A DNA stretch of 64,000 nt, taken from positions 22,818-86,817 of the IMG/VR virus record IMGVR_UViG_3300013126_000015; one strand, 5' to 3'. Under the pieces are notes generated by a model. It ran no database searches and was not told the DNA's origin. It saw nothing but the letters and a program-made list of their open reading frames with translations. This DNA comes from a virus. Its lineage: Duplodnaviria > Heunggongvirae > Uroviricota > Caudoviricetes. Positions 12,719-55,330 of this stretch are shown one piece after another (position 1 is the stretch's first letter; each line of letters opens with the position of its first letter). Made by a program: the position numbers and the translations under genes.

Positions 12719-13102
12719 TTATATAGGGGAAAAATTTTTAACTAATTTATTTGGATAGAAAGAAACGATATCTGCAGTATATATTGGAATATTATTTATG
12801 GTGAAGGTAGGTTGAGTATAAGGGTTATAGTAAATGATATTGTTGGAATTAATATTGATGAAAGAGAACAGGTAACCTTGAACACCTGCATGGACATTTT
12901 TTTTATTTTCTTTGATTACTCTTTGTCTACCTTTTTCGGATACTTTGAAAGTACAATTGGAAAGGGTTAGGTTTTGAGTATGGGCGATTACTTTATTTTT
13001 ATGTTTTATAGACCAGCAAGATTTGTGTATATTCCAGTATACGAATACTTTGGTACCATATAGAGAAGGAGGGATAGTATTATAGAAAGGGATGTTATTC
13101 AT
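12719..13102 (-). CDS. hypothetical protein (127 aa)
   Basis: ORF; ATGA overlap with next gene. Confidence 0.4.
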   Translation of the reverse strand: MNNIPFYNTIPPSLYGTKVFVYWNIHKSCWSIKHKNKVIAHTQNLTLSNCTFKVSEKGRQRVIKENKKNVHAGVQGYLFSFININSNNIIYYNPYTQPTFTINNIPIYTADIVSFYPNKLVKNFSPI

Positions 13103-13305
13103 AATGTTAAAAGGAACATGGTGATATGGTGTTCATCGCCTTCTAATACTCCCCAATATCCACTATCATGTTGAGTTTTGCATTCTGAATAAGACAGGTG
13201 GTATTGTTGCTGGATAATATTGTTCCACTCATGCAATCGTCGTTTACTATGACCTAACTTTTTCAATAATATATTCCATTGGTCTGATGATAGGTAATAT
13301 TTCAT
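13099..13305 (-). CDS. tandem paralog family I small protein (MKYYLS...EGDEHHITMFLLTL)
   Basis: conserved N- and C-terminal motifs shared with neighbours. Confidence 0.55.
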   Translation of the reverse strand: MKYYLSSDQWNILLKKLGHSKRRLHEWNNIIQQQYHLSYSECKTQHDSGYWGVLEGDEHHITMFLLTL

Positions 13306-13535
13306 AATTGTAGTAGGAACATAGTGATATGGTGTTCATCACCTTCTATTATGCTATAGTATCCTGAATCTGATTCATGATATGATAGTTTTGTGTGATA
13401 ATAATTAGAGTTCCAGTATTTTAATCTATCCTGGTATGATAGAGCTTGATAATATGCAGAATCCTGATCCCATTTATCAAGATCGGTGTTATCCCATAAT
13501 TTATTATATTGTTCATTAGACAGGTAATATTTCAT
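13302..13535 (-). CDS. tandem paralog family I small protein
   Basis: MKYYLSNEQYNKLW...EGDEHHITMFLLQL. Confidence 0.55.
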   Translation of the reverse strand: MKYYLSNEQYNKLWDNTDLDKWDQDSAYYQALSYQDRLKYWNSNYYHTKLSYHESDSGYYSIIEGDEHHITMFLLQL

Positions 13536-13550
13536 AAAAATATTTATTGA

Positions 13551-14096
13551 TTATGCAGTAGTCAAGTTATGTTTATGAATCCAGAATTGTAGTTTATCTA
13601 ATTCTATGTCATTGATCCAAAATTCTTCATATTCAATATTGCCATTATCGAAATATCTGGTTACTGCAGGGCCATTATCGTTATGTCTGTTGCCATTGAT
13701 CCAAAATCCTTCTTCAATGATATTGCCATTTTCGGAATAATAGATTGATGCAGGTCCATTCTCATTGTGTGTTTTGCCATTAATGGAATATCGTTCATAC
13801 CTGATATTACCATTTGGATGAAATTCAACAATTGCAGGACCATATTCGTTATGGTATCTACCGAGTATGAGGTATTGTTTAGATTCAATATTACCATTCT
13901 CCCAATAAGAAATATATGCAGGCTCGTTGATATTATGTCGTTGGCCATTCTCCCAATATTCTGTTGATGCTATAGTACCATTATCGTAATAAGTAATGAT
14001 TGGATTCGGCATAATATTGTGATTTATTTTATTAAGTGTAGATATATTATACCATGATATTGAGTGGATGTCAAGTGATAGATCATAATTCTGCAA
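13551..14096 (-). CDS. MORN-repeat protein (>=6 repeats YxENGxxxxxxYWxNG)
   Basis: repeat pattern in translation. Confidence 0.55.
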   Translation of the reverse strand: MQNYDLSLDIHSISWYNISTLNKINHNIMPNPIITYYDNGTIASTEYWENGQRHNINEPAYISYWENGNIESKQYLILGRYHNEYGPAIVEFHPNGNIRYERYSINGKTHNENGPASIYYSENGNIIEEGFWINGNRHNDNGPAVTRYFDNGNIEYEEFWINDIELDKLQFWIHKHNLTTA

Positions 14097-14361
14097 GGAT
14101 AAAGATTGTTATATGATTTTCATCACCAATTAATCTACCCCAGAATCCTGGATAGTCAGTAAGTTTGATAGATGGTGGGTGATCTTCTGATTCTATATAA
14201 TCTATGTTAAATTGATTTCTAAAAGTTTTTTTCCAATAATCATTTCTTTGTTTGACGGTAAGGACTTCATCATATTTTGGTTGATCACTATACTGATTCC
14301 ACCAGATTAAGTTCCATTGTTTGCGAGTTAGATCATATTTCATAATTGTAATAAGAACCAA
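14083..14361 (-). CDS. tandem paralog family I small protein
   Basis: ...GFWGRLIGDENHITIFILAEL. Confidence 0.5.
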   Translation of the reverse strand: MVLITIMKYDLTRKQWNLIWWNQYSDQPKYDEVLTVKQRNDYWKKTFRNQFNIDYIESEDHPPSIKLTDYPGFWGRLIGDENHITIFILAEL

Positions 14362-14567
14362 ATAATTTGTTTTTCTTCACCTTCTAACCATCCCCAGAAT
14401 CCTGGTTCTGATGGTGAATATGATAAGATTTCATCATATGATAAGTTAGTTGATGATTCCATATTATCTAACCAGTATCCAATTCGTCTTTCTATTTGTG
14501 TTATATCATATAGTCCTTTATCCCACCATATGCGTTTAAATTCATTTTCAGATAGGTAATATTTCAT
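14340..14567 (-). CDS. tandem paralog family I small protein
   Basis: MKYYLSENEFKRIW...EGEEKQIIWFLLQL. Confidence 0.55.
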   Translation of the reverse strand: MKYYLSENEFKRIWWDKGLYDITQIERRIGYWLDNMESSTNLSYDEILSYSPSEPGFWGWLEGEEKQIIWFLLQL

Positions 14568-14806
14568 AGTTGTAATAGAAGTATATTAATATATTTTTCA
14601 TCACCGTTGATAATAGCAACATGATCATTACATGAAGTATTGTATGTTTCCATATATGTAATATTTGGATATGTTTCATCCCAAAGTATATATCTACTCA
14701 TTTTACATTTGTATTCACCATCTAGTGGTTCAGTGATCCATTGAGATGGTTCAAATAGACAATACCATATAGTATTCCATTGATTATATGTAATATAATG
14801 AATCAT
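14564..14806 (-). CDS. tandem paralog family I small protein
   Basis: ...NGDEKYINILLLQL. Confidence 0.5.
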   Translation of the reverse strand: MIHYITYNQWNTIWYCLFEPSQWITEPLDGEYKCKMSRYILWDETYPNITYMETYNTSCNDHVAIINGDEKYINILLLQL

Positions 14807-15120
14807 ATATACTGGTGATCTTTACAAAATAATTTAATTGATTTTTCTAATTGTGATTTATCAATTAAATTATAACGTCTTCTTAATGTAGAGAGTGACA
14901 CAGATTTATTATTTTTTGCCCAAGAGCCATATAGTGGTATAGAATGCAAAGTAGTTGACCATGGGTATACATATGTCTCTATTTGATAAGTATATTCACC
15001 GACTATATCTTTTAAAATCAAGTTGATTCTTAGATAAGTTGATGGTTCTGAATAATAATGATTGGTGAATATAAATCCATATTTCAGGATTGACATTGTT
15101 TCGGTATTAGTTAAGTTCAT
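14803..15120 (-). CDS. hypothetical protein (105 aa)
   Basis: ORF in array, overlapping stop/start. Confidence 0.4.
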   Translation of the reverse strand: MNLTNTETMSILKYGFIFTNHYYSEPSTYLRINLILKDIVGEYTYQIETYVYPWSTTLHSIPLYGSWAKNNKSVSLSTLRRRYNLIDKSQLEKSIKLFCKDHQYI

Positions 15121-15180
15121 TGTTATGATATACCACGGTTATGTTAATAGTAGTATATCATAATTTTTGTATTATGTCAA

Positions 15181-16332
15181 CTATTGCCAATTGTATAGAT
15201 CGTCAAGATGTTTTTGCCATGCATGGATGGTGGGGTATTTTTGGAGGAATTGACCCTTTAATGGATTGTGACCCATATTTTTTAATCCAGCCTGATATGA
15301 TGTTTGTACCATTAATTTTTCCAATTCATCCATTGATTGTGTTGTTTTAAGTGCAGTTACCAAATGAGATTGATCATATGTTCTATTGTTGGCATATGTT
15401 TTTAATAATTCTTGTTTAGCTGGAGTATTTTTCATACGTTGAACCCAACCTGCAACTCTATACTCATCTAATGCAGAACCAATTTGTTGATTTTCATTAT
15501 CTGATAATTGAATTAATAGTTTAGATAATTGTTCTAGTGTTTTTGCAGAATTCAGTTGATGCAATGTCTCTTTCATGAATCTACCATGTTGTTGCATATC
15601 TTTTACACTATCTGGGGAATATTTGTTATTATAACGTTTTATATTAGTAATCGCATCTTTTGAGAAGAATACTGCCTGATTTCTTTCTGATGTATGTATG
15701 ATACCGATACCTGGATCATAAGCTCCATCGATGCCAATATATCTAAACAAATGATTCCACACAATATGAGTATTAGTACCTTGATCATTTGAGCGGGAAG
15801 TAGAAAGTTCTTGTGCTACTTTCATTGTCACGTACCATAATCTACCACCGGCATAACTATCGAATTTAGCTTTTCTATCTGATTGATTGATATAATGTTC
15901 AACTATATCAACTGCATCTTTCCATGGCATATTGGCATTTTTGGTAAAGTAGTCAGCGATTTTTTGGTAATATACTACTAAGTCTTGATTAGACAGGGTT
16001 TTAAGATTAATAATATTACCGTTAGCTTGGAATATATTAACAAATGCTTGATCGCCTGCAAATGGTAGATAATCCATTGCAGTATCAGTATTAGTTTGGT
16101 TAATAACGAATGATGCTGGGTAAGCATAGATACCGATTGGGGTATCCCATTCAGATTTAGGATTTATGCCTAATTTATCGACTGAAGTAAATGATACAAA
16201 GCAATTTACTTCATCTAAATTATCTAATGATGGTGCATTATGAAATGCATTAATAATAATATCATTAATGGATGTCTTAGGATTTTGTTTAGGATTTTTT
16301 CTTTTTTCAGTAATAAATTCATTTGCTCTCAT
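15181..16332 (-). CDS. putative packaged internal protein with T4-type capsid targeting sequence (MRANEFITE)
   Basis: N-terminus matches T4 IP CTS pattern xEF(I/L)xE; shared with 20245 and 20877 genes. Confidence 0.45.
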   Translation of the reverse strand: MRANEFITEKRKNPKQNPKTSINDIIINAFHNAPSLDNLDEVNCFVSFTSVDKLGINPKSEWDTPIGIYAYPASFVINQTNTDTAMDYLPFAGDQAFVNIFQANGNIINLKTLSNQDLVVYYQKIADYFTKNANMPWKDAVDIVEHYINQSDRKAKFDSYAGGRLWYVTMKVAQELSTSRSNDQGTNTHIVWNHLFRYIGIDGAYDPGIGIIHTSERNQAVFFSKDAITNIKRYNNKYSPDSVKDMQQHGRFMKETLHQLNSAKTLEQLSKLLIQLSDNENQQIGSALDEYRVAGWVQRMKNTPAKQELLKTYANNRTYDQSHLVTALKTTQSMDELEKLMVQTSYQAGLKNMGHNPLKGQFLQKYPTIHAWQKHLDDLYNWQ

Positions 16333-16381
16333 AGTAAGTATTTATCACTATAGATGCAATATAAACCAGTTAATTGATATC

Positions 16382-16669
16382 TCATATATTTAAAAGGAAC
16401 CAGTTAATTGATTTTTTAGATCCTGTTAGTATACCCCAGTATCCATCAAAATCATTATCATTATCTATAATAAGACCATAATGGTCTACCTGTGCTGGTA
16501 ACTCATTATAAGATAATTTATATTTATGTTTAAAATTATTCTTCCATATGGATTTTCTAACAAGAATAGCTTCGTAACAATTGGAGTTTGCATCAGATGT
16601 AACCTCGTTAACCCAATCAGTCCATATGGTCCAATATTGGTTTTCAGTTAGATAGTGTTTATATCTCAT
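16382..16669 (-). CDS. tandem paralog family I small protein
   Basis: ...GYWGILTGSKKSINWFLLNI. Confidence 0.5.
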   Translation of the reverse strand: MRYKHYLTENQYWTIWTDWVNEVTSDANSNCYEAILVRKSIWKNNFKHKYKLSYNELPAQVDHYGLIIDNDNDFDGYWGILTGSKKSINWFLLNI

Positions 16670-16905
16670 AATTGTAAAATAAAGAAGTTGATGTGTTTTT
16701 CATTGCCAAATATAATCCCATACCATCCATATGGTGTATCATCGTCGTCACTTATGTCGTTATTTTCGTAGTATCGTAATTTATACTTAGATTTAACATA
16801 CTGATTCCATTTAGATAATCTAATTGGGTAATATTCAACTGTGGGGGAAACATTATATTCCCCCCACAATCTACTATATTGTTCACCGGATAATTCGTAT
16901 CTCAT
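16666..16905 (-). CDS. tandem paralog family I small protein
   Basis: ...GIIFGNEKHINFFILQL. Confidence 0.5.
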   Translation of the reverse strand: MRYELSGEQYSRLWGEYNVSPTVEYYPIRLSKWNQYVKSKYKLRYYENNDISDDDDTPYGWYGIIFGNEKHINFFILQL

Positions 16906-17165
16906 AATTTAAGAAGCAGCATTATTATTCTATTTTTAGTACCATATAGAGAACCATAGTAAATATCTGATGATTCATCTTCTGAAGTATTATATCTTAT
17001 TTTATATTTTTGTTTAATAAATGGAATCCAATTAAATGGGTCTGTATGAGATAACCTATTGGATTTTTGGTGATCGTTGTATTCTGGATCATTACAAATT
17101 AAAGCATGTAGCGATTCAAATTGGGTGTCATTTAGTATAATGTTCATAGTTGTAATAATATCCAA
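16902..17165 (-). CDS. tandem paralog family I small protein
   Basis: ...GSLYGTKNRIIMLLLKL. Confidence 0.45.
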   Translation of the reverse strand: MDIITTMNIILNDTQFESLHALICNDPEYNDHQKSNRLSHTDPFNWIPFIKQKYKIRYNTSEDESSDIYYGSLYGTKNRIIMLLLKL

Positions 17166-17407
17166 TTAATATTACGTTCATCGCCTTCTAATACTCCCCA
17201 ATATCCTTCTGGTAAATCAATATCGTAGATATGGAGTTCTTCATAATATTTTACATTGGTGGCTGGGTATCTTTCCGTAAAAATACGGGCACGTTTATCA
17301 GCCGCAATAATAGATGATAGCCCAAAAAAATCAGACATATAGTTATCCCACAACTTATAAAATTGTTCGCTAGAAAGATAATATCTCATAGTTGTAATAA
17401 TAACCAA
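17144..17407 (-). CDS. tandem paralog family I small protein
   Basis: MRYYLSSEQFYKLW...GYWGVLEGDERNINWILLQL. Confidence 0.55.
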   Translation of the reverse strand: MVIITTMRYYLSSEQFYKLWDNYMSDFFGLSSIIAADKRARIFTERYPATNVKYYEELHIYDIDLPEGYWGVLEGDERNINWILLQL

Positions 17408-17601
17408 TTAATGTTTTTTTCACTGCCAGTTAACATCCCCCAGAATCCTGGTTCTGATAATCGCTCAGAATAGAGAACGTTATTTTTACTTAACCATTCT
17501 TTAACCTCCAGATCAGTAGGTTCATGATACCACAAATCATTATACTGTTCTTCTGATAGAAAATATGTTATATCATCATTCATATTTGTAATAATAACCA
17601 A
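17386..17601 (-). CDS. tandem paralog family I small protein
   Basis: ...GFWGMLTGSEKNINWLLLQL. Confidence 0.55.
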   Translation of the reverse strand: MVIITNMNDDITYFLSEEQYNDLWYHEPTDLEVKEWLSKNNVLYSERLSEPGFWGMLTGSEKNINWLLLQL

Positions 17602-17840
17602 TTGATATATTTTTCATCCCCTGATAATACTCCATAATATCCCTCTCCATAATATCCCTCTTCATATTCGTCACTATTTTCATAATAAATTATATTCAAA
17701 TGTGCATAACGAGTAGTCCACAATGATTTTCTATTTTCATATTCGATAGACATATCATACTGTGGATCTGCCCATTGTTCATCATTTATAACGGTGTACC
17801 ACAGGTTTGTCCATTGATTTGATGATAGATAGTATTTCAT
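17580..17840 (-). CDS. tandem paralog family I small protein
   Basis: MKYYLSSNQWTNLW...SGDEKYINWLLLQI. Confidence 0.55.
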   Translation of the reverse strand: MKYYLSSNQWTNLWYTVINDEQWADPQYDMSIEYENRKSLWTTRYAHLNIIYYENSDEYEEGYYGEGYYGVLSGDEKYINWLLLQI

Positions 17841-17848
17841 AATTTATC

Positions 17849-18127
17849 TTATCTACTCAATAAAAACATTATATAATGATGACCATCTTGTTTAATAAAT
17901 TGCTTAAATTTTTCAACATCAGCTTCATTATACAAAATTAAAGTCATCTCAAATCTATCTAGAATCTGCGCAAATGTGCCTGTAGTATGATATTTTGATT
18001 TATGTTGTAATGTTGCATTAAAGATGTCTTTACAAAACTTGGTCAATGGTATGTTAGTATCATAATAATCACGGCATTTCACCAATGTTTCATATTTGTC
18101 TTTATTAATTTTAATTTTGATGCTCAT
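17849..18127 (-). CDS. small protein with family II-like C-terminus (...HHYIMFLLSR)
   Basis: C-terminal motif. Confidence 0.45.
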   Translation of the reverse strand: MSIKIKINKDKYETLVKCRDYYDTNIPLTKFCKDIFNATLQHKSKYHTTGTFAQILDRFEMTLILYNEADVEKFKQFIKQDGHHYIMFLLSR

Positions 18128-18396
18128 GAGTATCTTAGTACAAACATGTTATAATCAGACAATGATTCAAATGTTATGATATCTTCATCAACTGTTTCTG
18201 GATTTGTGGCGCGATTTGCGCGAAATGTAATCATAAGGAATTTTTGTAATTCTTCTTCAATATATTGCACACTATCGTCATCATCTGAAAGATCGTCAAG
18301 ATATTGATTATAGTTATGTTGTAAATATAAGTCAAACTTATCTATAATGTCATCTACCGACGATGGTGGCAATTGTGTAAAATAAATGGTATACAT
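18124..18396 (-). CDS. small protein with family II-like C-terminus (...DYNMFVLRYS)
   Basis: C-terminal motif. Confidence 0.45.
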   Translation of the reverse strand: MYTIYFTQLPPSSVDDIIDKFDLYLQHNYNQYLDDLSDDDDSVQYIEEELQKFLMITFRANRATNPETVDEDIITFESLSDYNMFVLRYS

Positions 18397-18402
18397 ATTA
18401 AA

Positions 18403-18618
18403 CTATTCCAGTGTTAATAAGAACATGTTATAATGTCCTTCTGATTTGAATTGCAGATAATTAATACATGTTGGGTACTCAGTATAACTAACCTGAATAT
18501 CATATGATGATACATAACTTATCAATTTTTCTGGATCATCGATGTTATATACTAGTTTTTGCCACCATGATGGACATTGTTCAAGCGATGGTTGAAGAAG
18601 AACTCTATGTACACTCAT
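18403..18618 (-). CDS. small protein with family II-like C-terminus (...HYNMFLLTLE)
   Basis: C-terminal motif. Confidence 0.45.
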   Translation of the reverse strand: MSVHRVLLQPSLEQCPSWWQKLVYNIDDPEKLISYVSSYDIQVSYTEYPTCINYLQFKSEGHYNMFLLTLE

Positions 18619-18842
18619 AAATTTTTTAATATGAACAAATTAACGTGATTATCATCACCTGATATCATGCCATTATACTGATTATCATTTGCATCGTTTT
18701 CATAATATGAAATATGATATAATGGATAGACGTGTTCATTCCAGTAATTCATCCTTTCTACTGATGAGATAGATTTTGTACCGATTGTTCTGTTCCAAAA
18801 ACAATAATGTTGATTTTTTGACAATGTATAATTTTTAATCAT
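18615..18842 (-). CDS. first gene of tandem array, family I-like (...GDDNHVNLFILKNL)
   Basis: consensus promoter 8 nt upstream of ATG. Confidence 0.5.
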   Translation of the reverse strand: MIKNYTLSKNQHYCFWNRTIGTKSISSVERMNYWNEHVYPLYHISYYENDANDNQYNGMISGDDNHVNLFILKNL

Positions 18843-18848
18843 ATATAA

Positions 18849-18877
18849 ATTATACAGAATTTTTTTGATGATGTCAA
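18849..18877 (-). promoter_or_regulatory. consensus sigma70 promoter (TTGACA 18877-18872, 17-nt spacer, TATAAT 18854-18849) driving the 5.7-kb tandem array; ATG only 8 nt after -10
   Basis: read directly. Confidence 0.6.
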
Positions 18878-18882
18878 TAAAA

Positions 18883-18900
18883 AAGGTCCTTTCGGACCTT
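18883..18900 (-). terminator. rho-independent terminator hairpin AAGGTCC-TTTC-GGACCTT with U-run on minus strand
   Basis: perfect 7-bp GC-containing stem, A/T runs on both sides. Confidence 0.6.
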
Positions 18901-18911
18901 TAATGATGTTG

Positions 18912-20168
18912 TTAGCCTGGGATATGGTAGAATGTTTTATACTTTCCGCCAGGAATATGACCCTTTTTGTACCCTTGTGGTTTCAGTTCAGTATAGATGA
19001 TGGACAATAATTGTGAACATATTGGTCTACCTGGAAACAGTTCATTAGCCATTTCTTCCAGTACAACGAATCCATTTTTCATTCGATGCTCATCCGCAAG
19101 TTGACGTATTTTTTCTTTATTTCGTTCAGTTTTTAATGAACTGAGTGGTGGCAATTTTGTAGCAGAGGATGGCACCGGTTCTGCAGGCGTTAGAAATGTG
19201 ACCATGGGTTTATTAGGTGTTGTGTATTGTTGATACGGTTTCGATTCTATTCTACCATTAACCTTATAATGGCCAACATTTTTACTATCAACACATATAA
19301 TCGGTGCACTGATTATTTCGATAAGAGTAGGAATTAATGAATCATCATTAACATGAATGTAGGTATTATTAAAATGAGTCTCTATTTTGGTCAGTTGGGT
19401 CAGTAAATGATCACCATCTTTTGGTACTGCGATATAATAACAACCAATTTCAGCAGCAATATCCGAGAACAATTGTTTATTTTCAGATGGTAAGATGATC
19501 CCATGGCCGTTTAACAATGCTTTACCAACCTCAACATCCGTGAATGTGGATGTTATTTCATCTACTTCAGTTGGTTGTTCTTGTGGCGTTTGTTGAGATT
19601 GTTGAGATTGCTGTGCTGCTTTGGTATTAACCGATGCCATATTCAGTGTATTTTCTACAGATTGTTCAAATAGCGGAAATACTGTATTAATTCTTTCAAA
19701 TGATTTACTGAGTTTTGATAATTTAGCAACATGTGACTTTTTGCTGATAAATTCTACAGGTACCAGATGTATATGACTCATACGAACAAAGTACCCTAAC
19801 TCTGGAGTATAATGTGCTTTATATTGGCTTTTATATTTTTTAACTAATGGGTCATCAGTTAAAAATATCAGAATATCGCTATAAGCTCGTTCATTATCTA
19901 ATGCGTATTCCACTGGTGCTACATATTTACCAATATCCGCATCATAGTAACTACCTCTACTGACATGGTATTTACCAAGATCACAATGTTCACTTATAGA
20001 AGAATCGAGCAGATAATATTTTGGATTAGGTCCATATTGGATGTCAGCATATGGTAAGAATTGTGTGTTTGTGTTTAATGGGATAACAGGGTACTTATGT
20101 GTTGTCCCGGATTTTTTTGAAGTTGATTTTGTAGTTGATTTTGTAGTTGATTTTGTAGTTGTAGCCAT
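18912..20168 (-). CDS. hypothetical protein (418 aa) with N-terminal TTKS x3 repeat (12-bp DNA tandem repeat 20123-20166) and QQSQQS low-complexity linker
   Basis: ORF; repeats read directly. Confidence 0.5.
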   Translation of the reverse strand: MATTTKSTTKSTTKSTSKKSGTTHKYPVIPLNTNTQFLPYADIQYGPNPKYYLLDSSISEHCDLGKYHVSRGSYYDADIGKYVAPVEYALDNERAYSDILIFLTDDPLVKKYKSQYKAHYTPELGYFVRMSHIHLVPVEFISKKSHVAKLSKLSKSFERINTVFPLFEQSVENTLNMASVNTKAAQQSQQSQQTPQEQPTEVDEITSTFTDVEVGKALLNGHGIILPSENKQLFSDIAAEIGCYYIAVPKDGDHLLTQLTKIETHFNNTYIHVNDDSLIPTLIEIISAPIICVDSKNVGHYKVNGRIESKPYQQYTTPNKPMVTFLTPAEPVPSSATKLPPLSSLKTERNKEKIRQLADEHRMKNGFVVLEEMANELFPGRPICSQLLSIIYTELKPQGYKKGHIPGGKYKTFYHIPG

Positions 20169-20244
20169 GATTACTCTTCGTTGATGTTGAAAGGAAACGT
20201 GCTAAGTTATGCACCATCTATTATAGCAACTTGCGTTGATTATG

Positions 20245-20880
20245 TCAATAAATTAATGAATCAATTCTTTTGAATTTTATGTTAAATGCATGACAAACCA
20301 ATTCAATTTCTCGAAGACATTGATCACGACCACCACCCATCATATAAAATGGCTGAAGAGAATGAAGCAAGTGAATTGGCACCCAATCTTGAACGAATAT
20401 AGAATCACTATTATTTTCTAATACTTCTTGCGCATCATCTGATAATAATTCTGGATTAAGATCCCTGGAATCATTCTGTTTTTGATTGTACATTGCTCTG
20501 ATGATTTCAATTATGATATGGTTATCAACCCCAGAGTCCATGTAACCTCTCAAAAATCCAAATTCTTTCTGAATGAATTGTGCATTTTGTAATTTTTGTT
20601 CCAATGGTGTTTGTTCTGCTGGTATATAATCATCTTCCTCGTCATCATAAACATATCCATCATATTCTTCATCATGTCCTGCAAGATAATTCAGTACTTG
20701 GTCCGGTGTATCACCCCCACCAAAATCATTATATACTATTACAATTTTTCCATTTGCTTTTTGAATCATTTGTTGAACACCTGGAAGAATATTATTGGCA
20801 TAATTTTGATATTCAGGTTGAACATCAATAATTAATAAATTGGTATTGGATGATTCTGTTAAAAATTCTTTTGCTCTCAT
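20245..20880 (-). CDS. CTS-bearing (MRAKEFLTE) isochorismatase-family hydrolase-like protein (possible nicotinamidase)
   Basis: LLIIDVQPEY and GGGRDQCL resemble isochorismatase/PncA motifs; CTS-like N-terminus. Confidence 0.35.
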   Translation of the reverse strand: MRAKEFLTESSNTNLLIIDVQPEYQNYANNILPGVQQMIQKANGKIVIVYNDFGGGDTPDQVLNYLAGHDEEYDGYVYDDEEDDYIPAEQTPLEQKLQNAQFIQKEFGFLRGYMDSGVDNHIIIEIIRAMYNQKQNDSRDLNPELLSDDAQEVLENNSDSIFVQDWVPIHLLHSLQPFYMMGGGRDQCLREIELVCHAFNIKFKRIDSLIY

Positions 20881-22325
20881 AATGCTTCCTGTTCCTTATT
20901 TTTTATAACCAGTGCAATGGTGTTTAATGATATTTCTGGTGTCATTAATGCGTCATATGCCATTTTTCGTTTTTCAACAGGAACTTCGGTATCTATTGAA
21001 AAATACATATCAACTAATATTTTTCTAATTTCTTGTTCTGATAGACCATTAGTATTGATATTTTTAGATTGTAATAGATCCAATGCCCCTTTATTCTCAA
21101 ATTTAAATTTGATGGTATTAGTCATATATTTTAGATTTCTATGATCTTTTTCATATGCTATATTACAGATTTCTTCTGTTCTAAATTCAGTAGGAATTAA
21201 TCCCAAGAATTCTGTTGGCGATTTAATATTTGTTGCAAATTGAAGATATAGGTTATAATCTTTTAATTCGTCTGGAATATAATGTAATGGATTATTTTCT
21301 CTATATACTATCACAAATGGTTTTGTTAAATGTTCTAGCCATTTTCTATATTTAAGTCTGTTTATATCAGGCGTAATTTCAGATTGAGGTATATATTCCC
21401 ATACATCTGGGTTATTATGGGAAATGTCTTTATAAAAATCCAATGACTTTCCATGTATGGCTTTTAACGCTGGTGCAAAATTTTTCACTCCTATTCTTAA
21501 TATAGGATCAGGAATATCATTGATAACATCAGGGTTATATCTGAATAAGCTCATTATATATATTGCACAATATCCATTTTCTTTCGTTAGCATTAATGCT
21601 TTTTCAATTTGTCTATCACGATTTTTTATATTGTTATGCATATTAGCATTATCTAAAAAACTCATTGCACTTTTATACTTTTCTTTTGAGCTGCTAATAT
21701 CTGTTAAGTGTTTATTAATGATAGTTTGCTTAATTTGTTGAGCAGATAGTTTAGTAGCAGCAGTGAATTGTTGCTCTGACATTGAGTTATCTTGTTGATC
21801 AAATATTTCAATTTGTTCAATATCCTGATGAATGGCTAATGCCCACATAGTAGAAGATGGCCACGTAGTAGAAGATGCCATATCATTAGTGGGCTTTTTC
21901 TGTAAGCAGTATACCAATATTACACTTCTATCATAAAAGTATTCTTCAAAATAACTTTGTGTTGGTTTTGTTGTACACCAGCTTGACTCTTTACCATGAA
22001 AACATGATGCATCTTTATCTAATGGTATTACTATCAACCATTCATCATTTTCTTCTAAAGTAATGGATTGTCCTTTAGCTTTCTTACGTTTTATGTTTGT
22101 TTTGGTTTGTCCAGGATCAAATTCATCGACAAATGATTTAAATTCATCAAATGGCTGTTTACCCCAATAATCAATATTTTTTTGATTAATATCGGTTATT
22201 TGTTTTTTATCTACTAACTGTTTAAATTTGTTAATATACTGAGTAACTATAGTTTCATCATTTTTTTGTGAAAACTTTGATTTTACTTCTTTATATCCTT
22301 CTAATATAAATTCTTTTGCTCTCAT
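20877..22325 (-). CDS. putative internal protein with CTS (MRAKEFILE), 482 aa
   Basis: N-terminal 9 aa and upstream DNA conserved with 20245 and 15181 genes. Confidence 0.45.
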   Translation of the reverse strand: MRAKEFILEGYKEVKSKFSQKNDETIVTQYINKFKQLVDKKQITDINQKNIDYWGKQPFDEFKSFVDEFDPGQTKTNIKRKKAKGQSITLEENDEWLIVIPLDKDASCFHGKESSWCTTKPTQSYFEEYFYDRSVILVYCLQKKPTNDMASSTTWPSSTMWALAIHQDIEQIEIFDQQDNSMSEQQFTAATKLSAQQIKQTIINKHLTDISSSKEKYKSAMSFLDNANMHNNIKNRDRQIEKALMLTKENGYCAIYIMSLFRYNPDVINDIPDPILRIGVKNFAPALKAIHGKSLDFYKDISHNNPDVWEYIPQSEITPDINRLKYRKWLEHLTKPFVIVYRENNPLHYIPDELKDYNLYLQFATNIKSPTEFLGLIPTEFRTEEICNIAYEKDHRNLKYMTNTIKFKFENKGALDLLQSKNINTNGLSEQEIRKILVDMYFSIDTEVPVEKRKMAYDALMTPEISLNTIALVIKNKEQEAL

Positions 22326-23020
22326 TATTTTTCAAACCTTGTGGTAATTGGGTCAATTAATACTGCTTGCCCATTTTTTCTTCTCATGATATTATTAAAG
22401 TGCATATCAGGTTCAAATTGATTATTTCTGAATAATGGCTCTAATATTCTTAATGCTTGGGAAAATTGTTTATTTGTAGTTGAATGTCGAATTTTATTTC
22501 TGGTATTATCATCAAAAAATGCTTTCGAAAATTTAACATGGGCTGGGAATTTTCCACTAGGATCAGTCGAGTTGACAATATCCATTATTCCTAGATTATT
22601 ACACAATAATTCTACACCATTATTTGGATAGTCAAATAATCGTTCCATTACAATTAATAATTGATATTTTGCCTTTGATTGTTCTGGTTCCAAAAAGAAA
22701 TCATGTTGTTGTTCAAACCATTCCATATCATCATATGAAAATTTACTTATATCATATAATTTGAATTTAAGGATTTTTGGAAAGAATTGGTTTTCTGGAT
22801 GATTATGGCATACTCTTAAAAATTGATATGCTGGATCTGATGGACCACTTATTGCAACAAATTTAAGGATGATATTCGGGTTATTTTGAACAGCATATGC
22901 TATAGCTTGAATTCCATTTCCAAGATATGATAATTGTGGTTTATTAATTACACCAGATAATGGTTTTTTTGATGTGGGTATTTCTATTTTCTTTTCTAAG
23001 ATGAGTTCATGAATTTTCAT
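22325..23020 (-). CDS. kinase-like paralog with CTS-like N-terminus (MKIHELILE); degenerate catalytic motif
   Basis: C-terminus ...NGQAVLIDP paralogous to 23024 gene. Confidence 0.4.
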   Translation of the reverse strand: MKIHELILEKKIEIPTSKKPLSGVINKPQLSYLGNGIQAIAYAVQNNPNIILKFVAISGPSDPAYQFLRVCHNHPENQFFPKILKFKLYDISKFSYDDMEWFEQQHDFFLEPEQSKAKYQLLIVMERLFDYPNNGVELLCNNLGIMDIVNSTDPSGKFPAHVKFSKAFFDDNTRNKIRHSTTNKQFSQALRILEPLFRNNQFEPDMHFNNIMRRKNGQAVLIDPITTRFEK

Positions 23021-23023
23021 ATA

Positions 23024-23650
23024 TTAAACCATTGGGTCGATAACAACAAGGTCGCCATTTTCACGTTGCATAATGTTTCCGCGATGTAGGTCTAACACAT
23101 GGGATGGATATGTATTCATCAAGTCAACCATTAATTCAAATATTTTTGGATAATCATGGCGTAATGTTTGGATTCTGGACGGATCATTGTTCATAAACCA
23201 TTCTATATCACTTTTATCACCTATCGATGATATGATGCCAACTAACGAATTGTATTGGTCATTGCGCGAAATTCTATGTAATTTTTCAATTCTAACAACA
23301 AAAGTATTGTCGTTGATTTTAATGATATTGCCCTTAAACTTTGGAATTAAAGGATTATTTTGATGTTGTCTTGCATATTGTATGTAATCAAAATACGCTT
23401 TATCATGTGTGAATATTTTGAACACCCATGGGTAGTTAGGATGTTCAAATGCTGTTCCACCTTGCCCCGGTGAACCAACAGCATTAAATCCATTATCTAC
23501 CATATACTTTTGAAATTGTATTAATCGAGATATTCTATTATTAACCCCAGACAAATCCCCATGGAAAATTTCTTGGGATTTTTTGTAATGGTCGTTTTGT
23601 TTGTATCCAGTAAGTTCACGAATATGCATCTTGTATTTATGCTTATTCAT
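23024..23650 (-). CDS. protein kinase-like fold protein (APH/ChoK-like HxDLHRGNI ... VVIDP)
   Basis: catalytic-loop-like DLHRGNIM and IDP motif. Confidence 0.4.
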   Translation of the reverse strand: MNKHKYKMHIRELTGYKQNDHYKKSQEIFHGDLSGVNNRISRLIQFQKYMVDNGFNAVGSPGQGGTAFEHPNYPWVFKIFTHDKAYFDYIQYARQHQNNPLIPKFKGNIIKINDNTFVVRIEKLHRISRNDQYNSLVGIISSIGDKSDIEWFMNNDPSRIQTLRHDYPKIFELMVDLMNTYPSHVLDLHRGNIMQRENGDLVVIDPMV

Positions 23651-23878: not shown

Positions 23879-24187
23879 CTACCCTTTGAATATTTTTTTT
23901 AATATCTTACGGTTGTTTGTGACATTGTGTTGACCAATATCAACGGCTCTCAATTTAATCCACCTGAATTCTTTAATATCTTCATCAGATATTTTACCAG
24001 TTTCTCCGGTTCGATTTTTAATAAGAAATACTTCTCCAGAAATATTGTTTTCTGCCCACACACGGTCACTTGATAATATTACTTTATACATTACCTTTTC
24101 CAATCGTACTACTGGTGGGTAATCCGATATATACGGATTAATTACAGCATAAATGGTCCAGTTGTTATCTAGTAAATTAATGTCCAT
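23879..24187 (-). CDS. hypothetical protein (102 aa)
   Basis: ORF. Confidence 0.4.
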   Translation of the reverse strand: MDINLLDNNWTIYAVINPYISDYPPVVRLEKVMYKVILSSDRVWAENNISGEVFLIKNRTGETGKISDEDIKEFRWIKLRAVDIGQHNVTNNRKILKKIFKG

Positions 24188-25064
24188 ATTTTTCTATTAT
24201 AGATTTGATGTCATTAATAATATTTTGATTTACATCAATTGAAATGGCGCTAGAAATAGAACCATAGTGCATTTCCAATGATTCAAATAATAATTTCTTA
24301 ATTGTATTTTCGTCTGGCGCATACCGCAAGGTTGATTCATGATACAATTTATCTAAATATTTTTCTTTTTCTGCAAACCATTCTTCATTTTTTTCAATTG
24401 GCCATTCACCATTTCTTACTGAACGTAGTAATGGTCCGTTGCATTCAAGATCTAAATCATGATGCTCCAATATCTGTTCACACTCAAGTCCAAGACGTAA
24501 AATATGATATAAAAACTTCGTATCATACCCAACTCTATCTATTGTTTCTTGCCGTTTTTTATTTGATCTATTAGCTCCATTTTTAAATTTAGATATTTGT
24601 GAAAACATGTATCCACGGAATTTATGGAATGAACCTTTATGTAGGAATAGTTTTCTATTTGTTCTAATATGCTCGTATATTCCAGTAGAATGTAGTACAC
24701 ATCGTCTAGGCAAAAACAGAACGTCAACCATATTTGGATTATTTTCCATTGCCAATTGAAAGAATTTAACAATATTATAGATTGTTAAATCTATTTCTTT
24801 ACGATGCTCTTTTAGTTCAATATGGTGTTGTTGAAATACATCAAATCGTTGTTGCTGAGAACCAAATCCTAAAATTTCACCGGCAAGATGCGGGAAAATA
24901 ATTTCTTTTGGTGGAATACAGAATCCTACAATATCCATATCAGATGCATCATCAGATGCTGCATATGCAATAGAGCCTGTCATCCCTTCAAACATGGTGT
25001 TATCAGGTAACCATTTTGGTGGAGTAATTAGATTTTTTTGTGAAAGAATTTTTGAATATTGCAT
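24177..25064 (-). CDS. Pol-beta superfamily nucleotidyltransferase (GS-x10-DMD motif) with C-terminal helical domain
   Basis: MTGSIAYAASDDASDMDIVGF and downstream VDVLF carboxylate. Confidence 0.45.
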   Translation of the reverse strand: MQYSKILSQKNLITPPKWLPDNTMFEGMTGSIAYAASDDASDMDIVGFCIPPKEIIFPHLAGEILGFGSQQQRFDVFQQHHIELKEHRKEIDLTIYNIVKFFQLAMENNPNMVDVLFLPRRCVLHSTGIYEHIRTNRKLFLHKGSFHKFRGYMFSQISKFKNGANRSNKKRQETIDRVGYDTKFLYHILRLGLECEQILEHHDLDLECNGPLLRSVRNGEWPIEKNEEWFAEKEKYLDKLYHESTLRYAPDENTIKKLLFESLEMHYGSISSAISIDVNQNIINDIKSIIEKYGH

Positions 25065-25121: not shown

Positions 25122-27626
25122 TTATTTACCGTTATCAACGATAATACTTGTTGAATATGTGATACCACCTAAAACATAACCTTTAGTTGAATCAGCATCA
25201 AAACCAATTCCGAAAGATTTAGCGGTACCTTTCCAAGATATTTTAGCACAATCAAGGACGGTTACCTGTTTAGTACCAATTGTAACAACATTACCATTTA
25301 CCGCAGTGATCTTAGCATGAATATCACTTGCTGATTTAGCACCAGCTGGTGTTACACAACTTCCAGCAGGAACTGGGGTTGGTGCTAATGTAGGCACTGG
25401 GGTGCTAGTTGGTGCAGCAGTTGGGACCGGTGTAGCAGTAGGTGCAACTGTTGGTACAGGTGTTGAAGTAGGAATTGCTGTTGGCACTGGAGTGCTAGTA
25501 GGCAATGGGGTACTTGTAGGTACAGCTGTAGGCACCGGTGTAGCTGTAGGAGCAACAGTTGGAACCGGAGTAGCAGTTGCAACGACTGGAGCTGGATCTA
25601 ACGTAATAGTAGTGGCTTCACAGAATACACCAGTTTGATCTTTAACACCAGCATATGTTGCTAATGATCCAGCAGCAAACGTACCTGTCCCGCCAACTAC
25701 GACACCAGTATAATGGACCATTGCGTTTGCCGTAGTAAATGCAGGGTTTGCACCTCTTAATTGAGTGAAACCGGTAATCGGTTCTTGAACACCAGAACAC
25801 GCAGGAGTATTAATAGTCAAATCCAATGTTTCAGATGCAGCAGTTCCAGCAGAATCGGTCAAATCAAATTGAATCGGATAAACACCACTGGTTCCTTGTG
25901 TACCATTAGTATTATCTGGAGCGGCTGGTGTGCCGTACAATTGAATACCATCAAATAACAAACCATTTGGAAGTGGTAAACTAACTGCATTAATAGCAAT
26001 GGTATAAGGAGCGATGCCACCAGTTACACTAATCGGTGTATTAGGCATTGCAACACCTTCAGTCAACACTGGAAGACCTAGAGTAGTAAATGCTAATGCT
26101 GGAACAGGAACAACTACTGGAGCTGGTTGACCATTAGCTAACAATACTTGAACTGTATAAGCTTTAGTAGAAACATTACCATCAGTATCAGTTACATTGA
26201 TAGAAAAGTCATATTTACCAGGAACAGTTGGAGTACCTTCAACAATACCACTATCCAACCCAACAGTCAACCCATCAGGAACTTGACCAGTTGTAGTGAT
26301 TTTATATGGAGAATTACCACCATAAACTGTAGATAATGGAGCCATTTTAGTGTTAACTTTAATATCAGCAATTGCTTCAGCTTGAGTCAATGGCATAACG
26401 TCATTGAAACCAACCATGTTTTCAGAGATAAAGTCACCTACAACAACTACAGCAGAACAATCATAAGAATAACTATCACCTTGCGTATCAGTAATAGTTA
26501 CTGCATTTAATGATGCCGCACCATGTTTACCATCTGGACCAACAGTATCACACATTTGTTCATGTGTTTCACCATCAAATGACCCAGTTGTAGCTGAACC
26601 AGTTGCAGCATTTACGCCAGATGTTAGAGCAGGATCACCATTACCAAATCTGAAGTAGGTATATTTGCGAGTAATAACTTCATCATTAGCTACTTTTTCA
26701 GCAGCACCTACATGTTCTTCTTTAGGTTGTGGTTTACAGACTTTTGGATCTGGATCAACGCAAGCTTTAGCTTTAGGTGGCTTTTGAATCAAATACCATT
26801 CAGATTCAACTTGATTAGGTTCACCATTTTGCCAATCAGGAAGACCATCACCATTTTTATCTTCATTAACTAATGCTTTAACCAATTGGTCAGCACCACC
26901 AGCAACTTTTTTACCATGTACTGACGTTTTTTCAACTCTCAACCAAACAGGTTCACCCCATTGAGCAGGAGCTGGTTCAACTTTTTCTTTAGGAGCTTGC
27001 TGAACAGGGACTACGTTAACTACCGCAGGTTGAAGAGGAATCGGTTGAGCTGGGGCTGGTTGTACTGGAGGTGGAGCTACGAACGTTGGAATTGCCATAG
27101 TAACACCAGGAGCAGATCCACCCAAACTAGCACCACGAACAAGACCAGAGCCTTGTTGATTCAACCAATAAAATCCAACGGATTTAGGAGTACCCATTGC
27201 ACCAGTTGCGAAATGTTCACATCCTGTATCAGCAGCAGATACACAAGAATGTCCACCGGTTGACCATGTTGAAGTGTCTGCAGCAATCGTACCACGAGGA
27301 CGAACACCATTTGCATCAGGTTTCAACTCGTAATGTACGATAGCATGAATTACACCAGCAGCATCAGTATATTCACCCACAGTTGGTGCACCATAACGTG
27401 CTGAATACCATGTATAGCCAATTTGAGCAGAATGCAAACCTTCAAAGTCTTGCTCAAAACCGTATGCCATTTGACCTGTATCATTCGCGACATCAAAGTT
27501 ACCAACAGATACGGCTTGTGCACCAATACCTACACCACATTTACCAAATCCATCACATATAGTGAATGCTTCTGCAGTCGTAATAAAAAATCCCAATAAT
27601 GCCGGGATGTACTTAATATATTTCAT
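25122..27626 (-). CDS. secreted protein with signal peptide, Ig-like (He_PIG-type) domains and ~70-aa Pro/Thr-rich linker; track start 27638, ATG 27626 preferred
   Basis: MKYIKYIPALLGFFITTAEA signal; TPVPT repeats; GGAGA SD before ATG 27626; GC-richer codon usage. Confidence 0.55.
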   Translation of the reverse strand: MKYIKYIPALLGFFITTAEAFTICDGFGKCGVGIGAQAVSVGNFDVANDTGQMAYGFEQDFEGLHSAQIGYTWYSARYGAPTVGEYTDAAGVIHAIVHYELKPDANGVRPRGTIAADTSTWSTGGHSCVSAADTGCEHFATGAMGTPKSVGFYWLNQQGSGLVRGASLGGSAPGVTMAIPTFVAPPPVQPAPAQPIPLQPAVVNVVPVQQAPKEKVEPAPAQWGEPVWLRVEKTSVHGKKVAGGADQLVKALVNEDKNGDGLPDWQNGEPNQVESEWYLIQKPPKAKACVDPDPKVCKPQPKEEHVGAAEKVANDEVITRKYTYFRFGNGDPALTSGVNAATGSATTGSFDGETHEQMCDTVGPDGKHGAASLNAVTITDTQGDSYSYDCSAVVVVGDFISENMVGFNDVMPLTQAEAIADIKVNTKMAPLSTVYGGNSPYKITTTGQVPDGLTVGLDSGIVEGTPTVPGKYDFSINVTDTDGNVSTKAYTVQVLLANGQPAPVVVPVPALAFTTLGLPVLTEGVAMPNTPISVTGGIAPYTIAINAVSLPLPNGLLFDGIQLYGTPAAPDNTNGTQGTSGVYPIQFDLTDSAGTAASETLDLTINTPACSGVQEPITGFTQLRGANPAFTTANAMVHYTGVVVGGTGTFAAGSLATYAGVKDQTGVFCEATTITLDPAPVVATATPVPTVAPTATPVPTAVPTSTPLPTSTPVPTAIPTSTPVPTVAPTATPVPTAAPTSTPVPTLAPTPVPAGSCVTPAGAKSASDIHAKITAVNGNVVTIGTKQVTVLDCAKISWKGTAKSFGIGFDADSTKGYVLGGITYSTSIIVDNGK

Positions 27627-27736
27627 TAATTTCTCCATAAAAATTTAAATTGTCAGCGTCAATATTATCAGACACTAATATATATTTATGGTAATGCTAC
27701 CATAAATTCTGTGTGTTATATCAAAGATTTATAATT

Positions 27737-29821: not shown

Positions 29822-31282
29822 CTATGCTCTAGCTCGTGATTTTACTTCGTCCCACGACTGCCGGTATTCTCTAAACCCGTCTTTGTACCACAATCTCCAT
29901 CCAGCCGCTGGAGTCAAAAAATTAAAGATATTTCCTTCTGATATAGCGTCATATACTTCAATGTCACCATTTTCATTCTCTCTGCAGCGAACTAATCCTT
30001 TTAATGATTTTTTTCCAGAATCAGTAATAGGATCTTTAATAGTAGCAACCCATTTTCCATATCTAAAATTTGCAGTTGATTTGAAACTGAAACCAAAATC
30101 ATCACGCGAACCAAAATGGGTGATACCTGCTCCAGAACCTAAGCAAAAGTTGTCCATAGCAAAGCCAGCATCAACCCACCCTTGACAAATTTCTCGAACT
30201 GTATTTACTTTTACACCATCTCCCTGTATTACACCAGTTGATGGGTGTAATACCTTGTACCCTTTATTATTAATAGTTACCCCAAAGGTAGCTTCCCAAT
30301 CTTTGCCTACTAATCCTGGTTCGATTGTCATATCTCCGGTATCTGGTCTAGCAATCATGCGCCCACCAGATGCCAAAATTCTATCTTTTAATCTAGTACC
30401 AAGATATTCTCTCACAAATCTTCTTGAATCATATGTATCAATCACTGCTGACATAAATGGTAAACCAATGCCGCGTTTATGTCTTTCCACTGCCTCAAAT
30501 AATCTATCTACTACCATAACAGCTGCACCGAAATCATCTTTATTTTCCGCATCTGAATGAGCACATGATACACTATGTTCACTCGCTTCAATAGATGAAG
30601 TTGATGGTTTATATGTTCCATACAAGCGTTTAATATACCCATTTGCTCTAATACAGTCTGACCCATCAAATAGTGCGGCATGTGCAATACCAGAGATTAC
30701 TGCTGCTTCATCTGGACTATCAGCACTTCTGTCGCCAAACTCATGCATCATGTAGTTAACATTGGTGGTGTCAGTTCCGGTAAGTTCACAGAATTCTATA
30801 AGAGTCAACCTCATTGCTCTGCAAACAGATGCAACAGTAGACATTTTCCAAATCAATGCTTGTGAAAATGTTTCAAAATAGGTTACTAACCACGCAAAAT
30901 TAGACACAGTATTAATAATACCAACTATTGGCGTTTGTGGTGCAACTATTCGGCCTTCTTCTACTCCATAAATTGCTAATGGTATTTTTCCATCAAGTTC
31001 TCGTACAATACGTTCCCATCCTTCTCTATTGAAGTGGTATCCTTGTTCAGTAACTTCAACTTCTGCTTCATCAATCATTTCCATTGTGATTCTAGTAGCT
31101 GCAAAAATTGAAGATAATAGGGTAATACCCATTGAAACAATATGGGTAGAATATGAACTTGACTTTCGTGGAACCATATTTGCATAACCATATTCGTCGC
31201 CAGTAGGTGCTTCTAGCCAGTGATTAATTTTATACCCATCTGCACACAAAATTATATTAAATGGTTTTAAATGTTCTAACAT
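29822..31282 (-). CDS. nadV: nicotinamide phosphoribosyltransferase
   Basis: full-length NAMPT-like translation; GAGGA SD. Confidence 0.75.
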   Translation of the reverse strand: MLEHLKPFNIILCADGYKINHWLEAPTGDEYGYANMVPRKSSSYSTHIVSMGITLLSSIFAATRITMEMIDEAEVEVTEQGYHFNREGWERIVRELDGKIPLAIYGVEEGRIVAPQTPIVGIINTVSNFAWLVTYFETFSQALIWKMSTVASVCRAMRLTLIEFCELTGTDTTNVNYMMHEFGDRSADSPDEAAVISGIAHAALFDGSDCIRANGYIKRLYGTYKPSTSSIEASEHSVSCAHSDAENKDDFGAAVMVVDRLFEAVERHKRGIGLPFMSAVIDTYDSRRFVREYLGTRLKDRILASGGRMIARPDTGDMTIEPGLVGKDWEATFGVTINNKGYKVLHPSTGVIQGDGVKVNTVREICQGWVDAGFAMDNFCLGSGAGITHFGSRDDFGFSFKSTANFRYGKWVATIKDPITDSGKKSLKGLVRCRENENGDIEVYDAISEGNIFNFLTPAAGWRLWYKDGFREYRQSWDEVKSRARA

Positions 31283-55266: not shown

Positions 55267-55330
55267 AGGTTGTACACCCACGATGTCATTGGCAATTGAT
55301 TGTGGTATTATCTTTCTTAATAATGGTATA

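Follow-up and report, generated by a model that had tools for sequence, protein, structure and literature searches.

Genes sharing an N-terminal leader

The window, that is, the whole 64,000-nucleotide stretch of DNA analysed here (positions 22,818 to 86,817 of IMG/VR virus record IMGVR_UViG_3300013126_000015), encodes a set of proteins that begin with a common leader of the form MRAKEF(I/L)xE, examined here as a putative capsid-targeting sequence (CTS) of the kind carried by the internal proteins of phage T4. Four of these proteins, p383, p211, p482 and p231 (Table 1), had been recognised in the initial annotation, and their open reading frames (ORFs) were confirmed in position and in N-terminal sequence, all four on the minus strand. 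A fifth, the cysteine-rich p85, had been overlooked. Members of the p85 family on other contigs carry the leader, as in the homologues MRVHEFITELSFHGRKCTQDC (locus L150) and MKIEELLNELTFHGSQCTKDC (L163); public gene calls place the start of p85 itself five codons upstream. A candidate sixth member agrees with a loose form of the motif only, having Asp instead of Glu at the final position.

A strict motif, M[RK]xxE[FIL][IL]xE at the ORF start, was matched by five ORFs of the window, against a mean of 0.01 and a maximum of one in six-frame ORFs from 200 residue shuffles. All five matches to the motif in a six-frame scan are ORF starts, the leader beginning at the initiator methionine between one and five codons from the upstream in-frame stop. 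The genes for p208, p231, p482 and p211 form a tight run in that order, neighbours being 3 bases apart or overlapping by 1 and 4 bases. The first of them, p208, is a kinase-like paralogue of p231 that starts MNKHKYKMHIRELTGY and has no leader, a natural contrast; the part common to p208 and p231 is limited to the C-terminal motif HxxNIMxRxNGxxVxIDP.

The initial annotation also described a conserved DNA sequence, ATGAGAGCAAA(A/T)GAATTT, at the start of all four genes. This held for p383, p211 and p482, in which the 18 bases after the ATG are identical, and failed for p231, which reads ATGAAAATTCATGAACTC. No conservation was found upstream of the ATG across the aligned start regions of the leader genes in the window.

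Distribution and modularity of the leader

IMG/VR was scanned with a degenerate 27-base pattern encoding MRAKEF[ILMF]xE, a permuted pattern of identical composition serving as the control. At least 120 loci were obtained compared with two for the control, and the leader is thus recognisable from sequence alone with almost no background. Among the matches listed, 132 of 132 lie at the start of an ORF, with the upstream stop usually 0 to 20 in-frame codons away. After removal of the leader, 131 listed proteins fell into at least 31 clusters unconnected by BLAST. Many leader-bearing proteins are between 200 and 630 residues long. The listed cargo includes an ADP-ribosyltransferase (PF03496, the fold family of T4 Alt), GH19 with LysM, an amidoligase and kinase-like proteins; a match to HAD phosphatases was weak. 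The cargo families of the window have no Pfam or PHROG family in common, except for a kinase profile matched by both p231 and p208.

Searches of a metagenome protein collection yielded 256 homologues of p482, 211 of p383 and 34 of p211. Nearly all begin with M-(R/K)-x-x-(E/D)-(F/I/L)-(I/L/F), followed by (L/I)-x-E and then by the core of the respective family. Across 123 distinct genes, synonymous variation was present at every leader codon while the residues remained constant: arginine was encoded by AGA in 100 genes, CGA in 13 and other codons in 10; alanine mainly by GCA (78), GCC (22) and GCT (21); isoleucine by ATA (38), ATT (29) and ATC (29). Because synonymous codons vary at every position, selection acts on the peptide and not on DNA or RNA, and on this ground a DNA-level element was rejected.

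The commonest cargo, accounting for 83 of the 131 listed proteins, is a family of approximately 125 residues with the motif Y(R/L)(F/L)G(V/I)A(L/I)AG and a basic C-terminus ending in KGYKRK. It is often present as tandem paralogues near the terminase; loci such as L017, L076, L035, L040 and L077 have one to three copies, roughly 1 kb away from the gp17 gene. In size and charge the family recalls the small basic internal proteins of T4. A tblastn search of cultured phages gave no match for this family or for p211. For p383, the sole match was an internal domain of a leaderless protein in a 735-kb uncultured phage (LR756501.1).

The end of the leader as a predicted cleavage site

A total of 266 homologues of the p482, p383 and p211 families were anchored at the first residue of the conserved core and read towards the N-terminus. 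The last residue before the core (P1) was glutamate in 262 (98%), and leucine or isoleucine occupied P3 in 231 (87%), the remainder being mostly valine, phenylalanine or methionine. In the p482 family, for which 116 sequences were scored, all 116 had glutamate at P1 and 108 had leucine or isoleucine at P3. Leader length varied between 3 and 30 residues, with most leaders in the range 8 to 11, and the extra residues lie between the MRxxEF part and (L/I)xE, as in MRATEFTNVLLE/GYKE, MKIREILAEQHTLIE/SSNTNLL and MRISEISEISEINE/ARKNPE (here and below a slash marks the end of the leader). From this geometry, the end of the leader is identified as a putative cleavage site of the T4 gp21 type. In AlphaFold2 models the leader is of low confidence and lies ahead of the first confidently modelled fold element. 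The predicted local distance difference test score (pLDDT) of p211 was 87, with residues 1 to 9 below 50, and that of p383 was 88, with residues 1 to 20 at approximately 52.

The T4 genome encodes similar N-termini, namely MKTYQEFIAE in both IPII and IPIII, MKTFKEFTSTTTPVSTITE in IPI, MAKINELLRE in gp24 and MLKEQLIAE in gp22. An alignment with the N-termini of IPI, IPII and IPIII, suggested in the initial annotation as a check, bore out the resemblance: the E-F-I-x-E of MKTYQEFIAE is identical, and the methionine and a basic residue are shared, with a shift of one residue. The T4 protease cuts after glutamate, at ITE-6 and LTE-619 of Alt and at the end of the 65-residue propeptide of gp23 (PMC5694885, PMC9026906). 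In the T4 CTS, residues 4 and 7 are the main determinants of targeting and residues 8 and 10 those of processing; aspartate at the last position allows targeting and blocks processing (PMC9026906). With the shift of one residue, positions 6, 7, 8 and 10 of the T4 sequence correspond to positions 5, 6, 7 and 9 of the leader, which are its best conserved.

Association with T4-type head genes and phage lineage

Homologues of T4 structural proteins were detected with phmmer in 35 of the 120 listed leader loci of IMG/VR, each extending over no more than 15 kb. Most were gp17 terminases, with some gp18, gp13, gp20, gp21 and gp23. In L073 the order gp20, gp21, scaffold, gp23 is followed by six consecutive leader genes, whose products begin MKIKDILAE, MRAHEFIIE, MRAIEFIIE, MRIAEFITE, MRFLEFINE and MRAKEFINE. 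A single-sequence scan of IMG/VR with p482 gave no matches; an alignment-based profile scan recovered 41 loci, of which 26 contain 61 strict-leader ORFs, with up to nine in 21 kb. L152, L153, L154, L157 and L158 share the order portal gp20, a 70-residue leader protein (MKSREFLKE), a p482 homologue, an acidic protein, gp21 protease, scaffold and gp23. The p482 homologue between portal and protease starts MRFIEFGLFE/GYKE, and the two leader genes together with the acidic protein fill the slot occupied in T4 by gp67 and gp68. Homologues of gp20, gp21, scaffold and gp23 adjoin leader genes in these loci as well as in L073, L138, PA5oct and CBB.

The capsid protein of the loci with p482 between portal and protease is 69% identical to that of the Pseudomonas jumbo phage PA5oct, and the terminase beside the leader genes of L017, a locus on a 524-kb contig, is 49 to 51% identical to those of PA5oct and Phosso. 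The DnaB-type helicase of the window is 50% identical to that of PA5oct and 40 to 47% identical to those of Atu_ph07, Phosso, Vibrio 2.275.O, XaC1, RsoM2USA and Salicola SCTP-2. Since capsid, terminase and helicase are all PA5oct-like, the leader contigs and the window can be placed in the same broad clade, and on sequence grounds the window is assigned to a jumbo phage of the T4-like PA5oct/RaK2/Atu_ph07 clade. PA5oct has been grouped with T4-related jumbo phages, and its portal, prohead protease and capsid protein are T4-like (PMC7318152). The window has a G+C content of approximately 31% and encodes, in addition to the helicase, a primase, other helicases, NAMPT, NMNAT/Nudix, endonuclease VII and a T4 RnlA-like RNA ligase. 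No tRNA genes were found in the window, and megablast of the region against phage records returned no match and hence no close cultured relative at the DNA level.

The propeptide end of T4 gp23, FLTE65/AE, aligns in register with FLVE/NA of PA5oct, GLTE/SA of L154, HLME/AA of L073 and MLRE/SA of CBB. The alignment of these LxE sites with Glu65 of T4 gp23 argues that the specificity of the protease is conserved in the clade.

A small gp23-like ORF of the window, which stands outside the leader system, matches T4 gp23 (phmmer, 7.6e-6) and phrog_138, 'major head protein' (1.6e-11), and carries a precomputed PF07068 assignment. Aligned with the capsid proteins of T4, PA5oct and L154, it retains only the segment of the N-arm with the signature IANDIVGVQPM and then diverges; it lies far from any head module. 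The ORF could have arisen by truncation of a capsid paralogue, or it could act as a decoy; its sequence ties the phage to T4-type capsids.

Leader-bearing proteins of PA5oct annotated as virion components

Two leader-bearing proteins of PA5oct carry the RefSeq note 'structural protein; ESI-MS/MS', an annotation of detection by mass spectrometry in purified virions (RefSeq locus tags are used here and differ from the gp numbers of the PA5oct paper). PQE65_gp333, of 73 residues, begins MKINDIITE/GYY, is encoded directly after the portal and is the counterpart of the 70-residue leader protein described above. PQE65_gp279, of 482 residues, begins MKLFEVFTLYE/DK and is encoded directly after the terminase. 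It matches leader proteins of L122 (4e-22) and L026 (1.4e-12) and aligns with the p482 profile with an hhalign probability of 80% (E 1.5e-5), its core containing DAxxFxGKxxxWCT, and is identified from these comparisons as a remote homologue of p482. The annotations support, but do not prove, a link between leader and virion, and say nothing on cleavage.

Some proteins of the p482 family (P0036, P0072, P0090, P0108, P0113, P0116 and P0120) have in common with PQE65_gp281, a PA5oct structural protein detected by mass spectrometry (MFNINDILRLAGVQAVKESE; NC_071039.1 127321..128817, L172 31321..32817), a different and longer N-terminus of the form M..I..L(F/L)E(L/M)AG(V/I). This second form may represent an extension of the leader or an alternative to it.

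Cargo folds of the window proteins

The core of p482 contains the motif DASCFHGKxSxWCT and a conserved N-terminal domain, and its relatives often have DUF4116 repeats. No clear enzyme match was obtained for the folds of p482 and p383, and p211 had no match in Pfam or Foldseek. Similarity of p231 to phrog_15752, the T7 gp0.7 kinase family, is confined to residues 174 to 227, some 50 residues (E=1.4e-5); for p208 it extends over residues 41 to 207 (E=2.6e-12). Neither protein matched a Pfam kinase. Among 210 relatives of p231, M[KL]LxEIL is common as the first seven residues, and relatives in IMG/VR that begin MKIKELLSE adjoin p482 homologues. Of the leader set, p231 is the least secure member.

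Interpretation and alternative explanations

The initial annotation had proposed that the leader is a T4-type CTS, and each prediction of such a sequence that could be tested in sequence data was borne out. What the sequence comparisons establish is a modular leader, selected as a peptide, that ends in (L/I)xE at the edge of the cores and is linked to T4-type head genes. We consider that M-(R/K)-x-x-(E/D)-(F/I/L)-(I/L)-x-E is probably a capsid-targeting sequence of the T4 kind, utilised by a clade of jumbo phages related to T4. During formation of the prohead, the leader would bind the scaffolding core, and the cargo would be enclosed by the shell. A gp21-type prohead protease would then cut after (L/I)-x-E and free the mature protein within the head. 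Enzyme-like cargo would be ejected together with the DNA when the next cell is infected, and would be active ahead of all phage gene expression. Some families may serve head assembly instead, above all those p482 relatives whose genes stand between the portal and protease genes. Binding to the core, cleavage, ejection and the action of cargo in the host are steps that we infer by analogy with T4.

Several observations weigh against this interpretation. Neither the window nor the adjoining 8 kb was found to contain a head module or a protease gene, the leader genes are situated among early-looking small genes, and the T4 late promoter TATAAATA is under-represented in the window (6 occurrences where 18 are expected). 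The core of p383 is contained in a leaderless protein of 737 residues in LR756501.1 (L125 19554..21767); the leader is thus dispensable for this cargo domain, which also circulates outside the leader system. The virion evidence consists of two proteins and derives from annotation notes rather than peptide data. PA5oct itself has one strict leader ORF in the part scanned, approximately 184 of 287 kb (all but the regions of about 50-70, 146-186, 216-228 and 256-287 kb), which argues that the leader repertoire is lineage-specific. For relatives of p231, the full strict leader, defined here as M[RK]xx[ED][FILMV][FILMV]xE, was present in only 15 of 150, the terminal glutamate often being missing. 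T7 gp0.7 starts MNITDIM, which is vaguely leader-like, and the N-terminus of the kinase family may simply be part of the domain.

Three alternatives were considered. The leader may target proteins to the prohead core, with the tagged proteins being assembly factors, that is, scaffold or core accessories like T4 gp67 and gp68, which are degraded or left behind and not injected. The p482-family genes and the 70-residue leader protein stand exactly in the gp67/gp68 slot, gp67, gp68 and gp21 of T4, like gp22 and gp24, have short N-termini ending in (L/I)xE, and the folds of p482 and p383 resemble no clear enzyme. However, much of the cargo belongs to enzyme types for which action on the host has precedents (ADP-ribosyltransferase, kinase, GH19 lysozyme, amidoligase and cysteine-hydrolase-like proteins), the copies in the window comprise several paralogues far from any head gene, and PQE65_gp279 and PQE65_gp333 persist in mature virions according to their annotation. 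We regard such a role as an unlikely account of the leader proteins in general, although it may be true for some families and not others.

The leader could also be a tag that has nothing to do with the capsid: a degron at the N-terminus that keeps early effectors short-lived, or a signal directing proteins to another compartment of the cell or phage. Short N-terminal tags can act as degrons, and the genes of the window lie in an early-like region in which late promoters were not detected. Against this, the leader is associated specifically with head genes of the T4 type, is present within head modules and ends in the gp21 cleavage motif, and the PA5oct proteins that bear it have virion annotations. 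The leader is too short and too polar to be a membrane or secretion signal, and a tag of any of these kinds is very unlikely. A nucleic-acid element with a functionless peptide, such as a translation-initiation signal or downstream box, a binding site for a regulatory RNA-binding protein or a joint at which recombination shuffles gene cassettes, would explain the identity of 18 bases in three genes of the window and the A-rich sequence of the leader; A-richness is common just after the start codons of well-translated genes. Such an element is extremely improbable in view of the synonymous variation at each leader codon with residues fixed, the absence of conservation upstream of the ATG, the retention of the peptide pattern with different DNA in the fourth and fifth members of the window, and the persistence of (L/I)xE at the core boundary despite changes in leader length.

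If the leader is a capsid-targeting sequence, it might further be the common 'address label' of a large set of effectors, so far unrecognised, that are packaged by jumbo phages related to T4, a proposal for and against which we see the balance as even. Dozens of families, including kinases, ADP-ribosyltransferases, cysteine hydrolases, amidoligases, lysozymes and proteins of unknown fold, may on this proposal be preloaded into the head and delivered with the DNA.

Genomic context in the window

The leader-gene cluster is flanked on one side by an RlaP-type nucleotidyltransferase (PF10127, 2e-17; phrog_388, 5e-47) and on the other by a MORN-repeat protein (PF07661). The gap between p383 and the cluster of p211 to p208 is filled by approximately 15 tandem small genes of a single paralogous family, the products of which start mostly with MKYYLS or MRYxLS and end in GDE(K/H)(H/Y)I(N/T)(W/M/F)(L/F)LLQL. 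Directly downstream of p85 is encoded a protein with a response-regulator receiver and a GGDEF (diguanylate cyclase) domain (precomputed PF00072 and PF00990), an uncommon gene in phages.

NAMPT (phrog_448, 6e-110) is encoded near a protein with cytidylyl/adenylyltransferase and Nudix segments (phrog_395, 6e-71), and the pair presumably resembles the NAD+ salvage used by phages against NAD-depleting defences. That the nicotinamidase-like fold of p211 is related to this pair is speculation. A repeat protein of 838 residues has an N-terminal hydrophobic stretch resembling a signal peptide and long repeats rich in Pro, Thr and Val (TPVPTAxPT); it gave only a weak PHROG match, and the G+C content of the surrounding stretch is 0.37-0.39 compared with about 0.31. 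In another protein, a Lar-like restriction-alleviation segment (phrog_5558, 2e-17) is joined to one of the endonuclease VII/HNH type (phrog_1035, 5e-29).

Table 1. Positions of leader-bearing genes and other features in the window
Feature	Position (strand)	Length (residues)	Leader (position)	Remarks
p383	16332..15181 (-)	383	MRANEFITE (codons 1-9, 16306..16332)	Core from KRKNPKQNPK
p211	20880..20245 (-)	211	MRAKEFLTE (20854..20880)	Core from SSNTNLLIIDVQPEY; isochorismatase/cysteine-hydrolase-like fold (remote likeness)
p482	22325..20877 (-)	482	MRAKEFILE (22299..22325)	Core from GYKEV
p231	23020..22325 (-)	231	MKIHELILE (22994..23020)	Weak similarity to T7 gp0.7 kinase family
p85	56725..56468 (-)	85	MKVYEIINE (56699..56725)	Cys-rich; fifth member
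Candidate sixth member	52533..52982 (-)	149	MKTIDILED	Loose motif only
p208	23024..23650 (-)			Leaderless kinase-like paralogue
gp23-like ORF	54970..55479 (-)	127-169		Context
Tandem small genes	13099..18842 (-)	68-95 each		About 15 genes
MORN-repeat protein	13551..14096 (-)			
RlaP-type nucleotidyltransferase	24177..25064 (-)			
Receiver and GGDEF protein	55509..56459 (-)	316		
NAMPT	29822..31282 (-)			
Cytidylyl/adenylyltransferase and Nudix	33055..34089 (-)			
Repeat protein	25122..27638 (-)	838		
Lar-like and endonuclease VII/HNH protein	5664..6332 (-)	222		

Significance and comparison with known systems

The leader represents a near-invariant relative of the T4 signal across a clade of mostly uncultured jumbo phages, with a wider and more enzyme-rich cargo than that of T4; dozens of families carry it, across hundreds of uncultured phages. 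If the interpretation is correct, the packaged, and possibly injected, protein sets of uncultured phages could be read from the occurrence of M[RK]xxE[FIL][IL]xE at ORF starts, and the non-DNA contents of giant phage capsids would become a question answerable from metagenomes. The outcome would be a catalogue of candidate proteins for host takeover in the first minute of infection and for anti-defence, for which p383, p482, p211 and the family of about 125 residues are nominated here as candidate packaged families. The leader would also provide a ready tag for loading foreign proteins into the heads of jumbo phages, and the engineering of protein delivery by this means is plausible.

A literature search found no description of CTS-type leaders in PA5oct/RaK2-like jumbo phages, and no paper containing the string MRAKEF was found in the searchable literature. 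Three features appear to be new, namely the consensus MRAKEF(I/L)xE, its occurrence in jumbo phages of the PA5oct/RaK2-like clade and in many uncultured relatives, and the breadth of its cargo. The principle itself has been known in T4 since the 1990s, and most work on it has concerned T-even phages and a few small internal proteins; the CTS concept for IPI, IPII, IPIII and Alt reportedly stems from Mullaney & Black in 1996. As in T4, a short N-terminal sequence, here a putative propeptide, heads fast-evolving proteins that have nothing else in common. Its central E-F-I-x-E is identical (MKTYQEFIAE in T4, MRAKEFIxE here), and it ends in a gp21 (L/I)xE site. The cargo includes an ADP-ribosyltransferase, as does that of T4 with Alt, the genes are scattered or arrayed by head genes, and the lineage is T4-related, with homologues of gp20, gp21, gp22 and gp23. 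The leader differs from the T4 CTS in having nine residues and an M-R-A-K start rather than ten residues and an M-K-T-Y-Q start, and in its occurrence in a PA5oct/RaK2/Atu_ph07-like jumbo clade and not in T-evens, as a system known from sequence only. Its cargo comprises at least 31 clusters, with many proteins of 200 to 630 residues, whereas T4 cargo consists of small basic proteins.

Likeness of p231 to the T7 gp0.7 family and of p211 to the isochorismatase/cysteine-hydrolase superfamily is remote and concerns the folds of the cargo. T7 gp0.7 is expressed in the cell and is not known to be a virion protein. Among relatives of the T-even phages, diverse internal proteins share only the CTS (PMC3012670, PMC9026906).

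Giant phages of the phiKZ type load many proteins into the head and possess a T4-related prohead protease that cuts after glutamate (phiKZ gp175 and SPN3US gp245; PMC5694885, PMC10052503). Their sites, however, are (S/A/G)-x-E or A-x-E, at the end of propeptides that often exceed 100 residues and have no short leader in common, whereas the sites described here are (L/I)-x-E and terminate a common tag of nine residues. The Dar proteins of phage P1 have no sequence similarity to the leader system. These anti-defence proteins enter the capsid during assembly and are delivered with the DNA (PMC9024508, PMC12810830), but their incorporation is described as dependent on other Dar and head proteins rather than on a universal, cleavable leader of nine residues.

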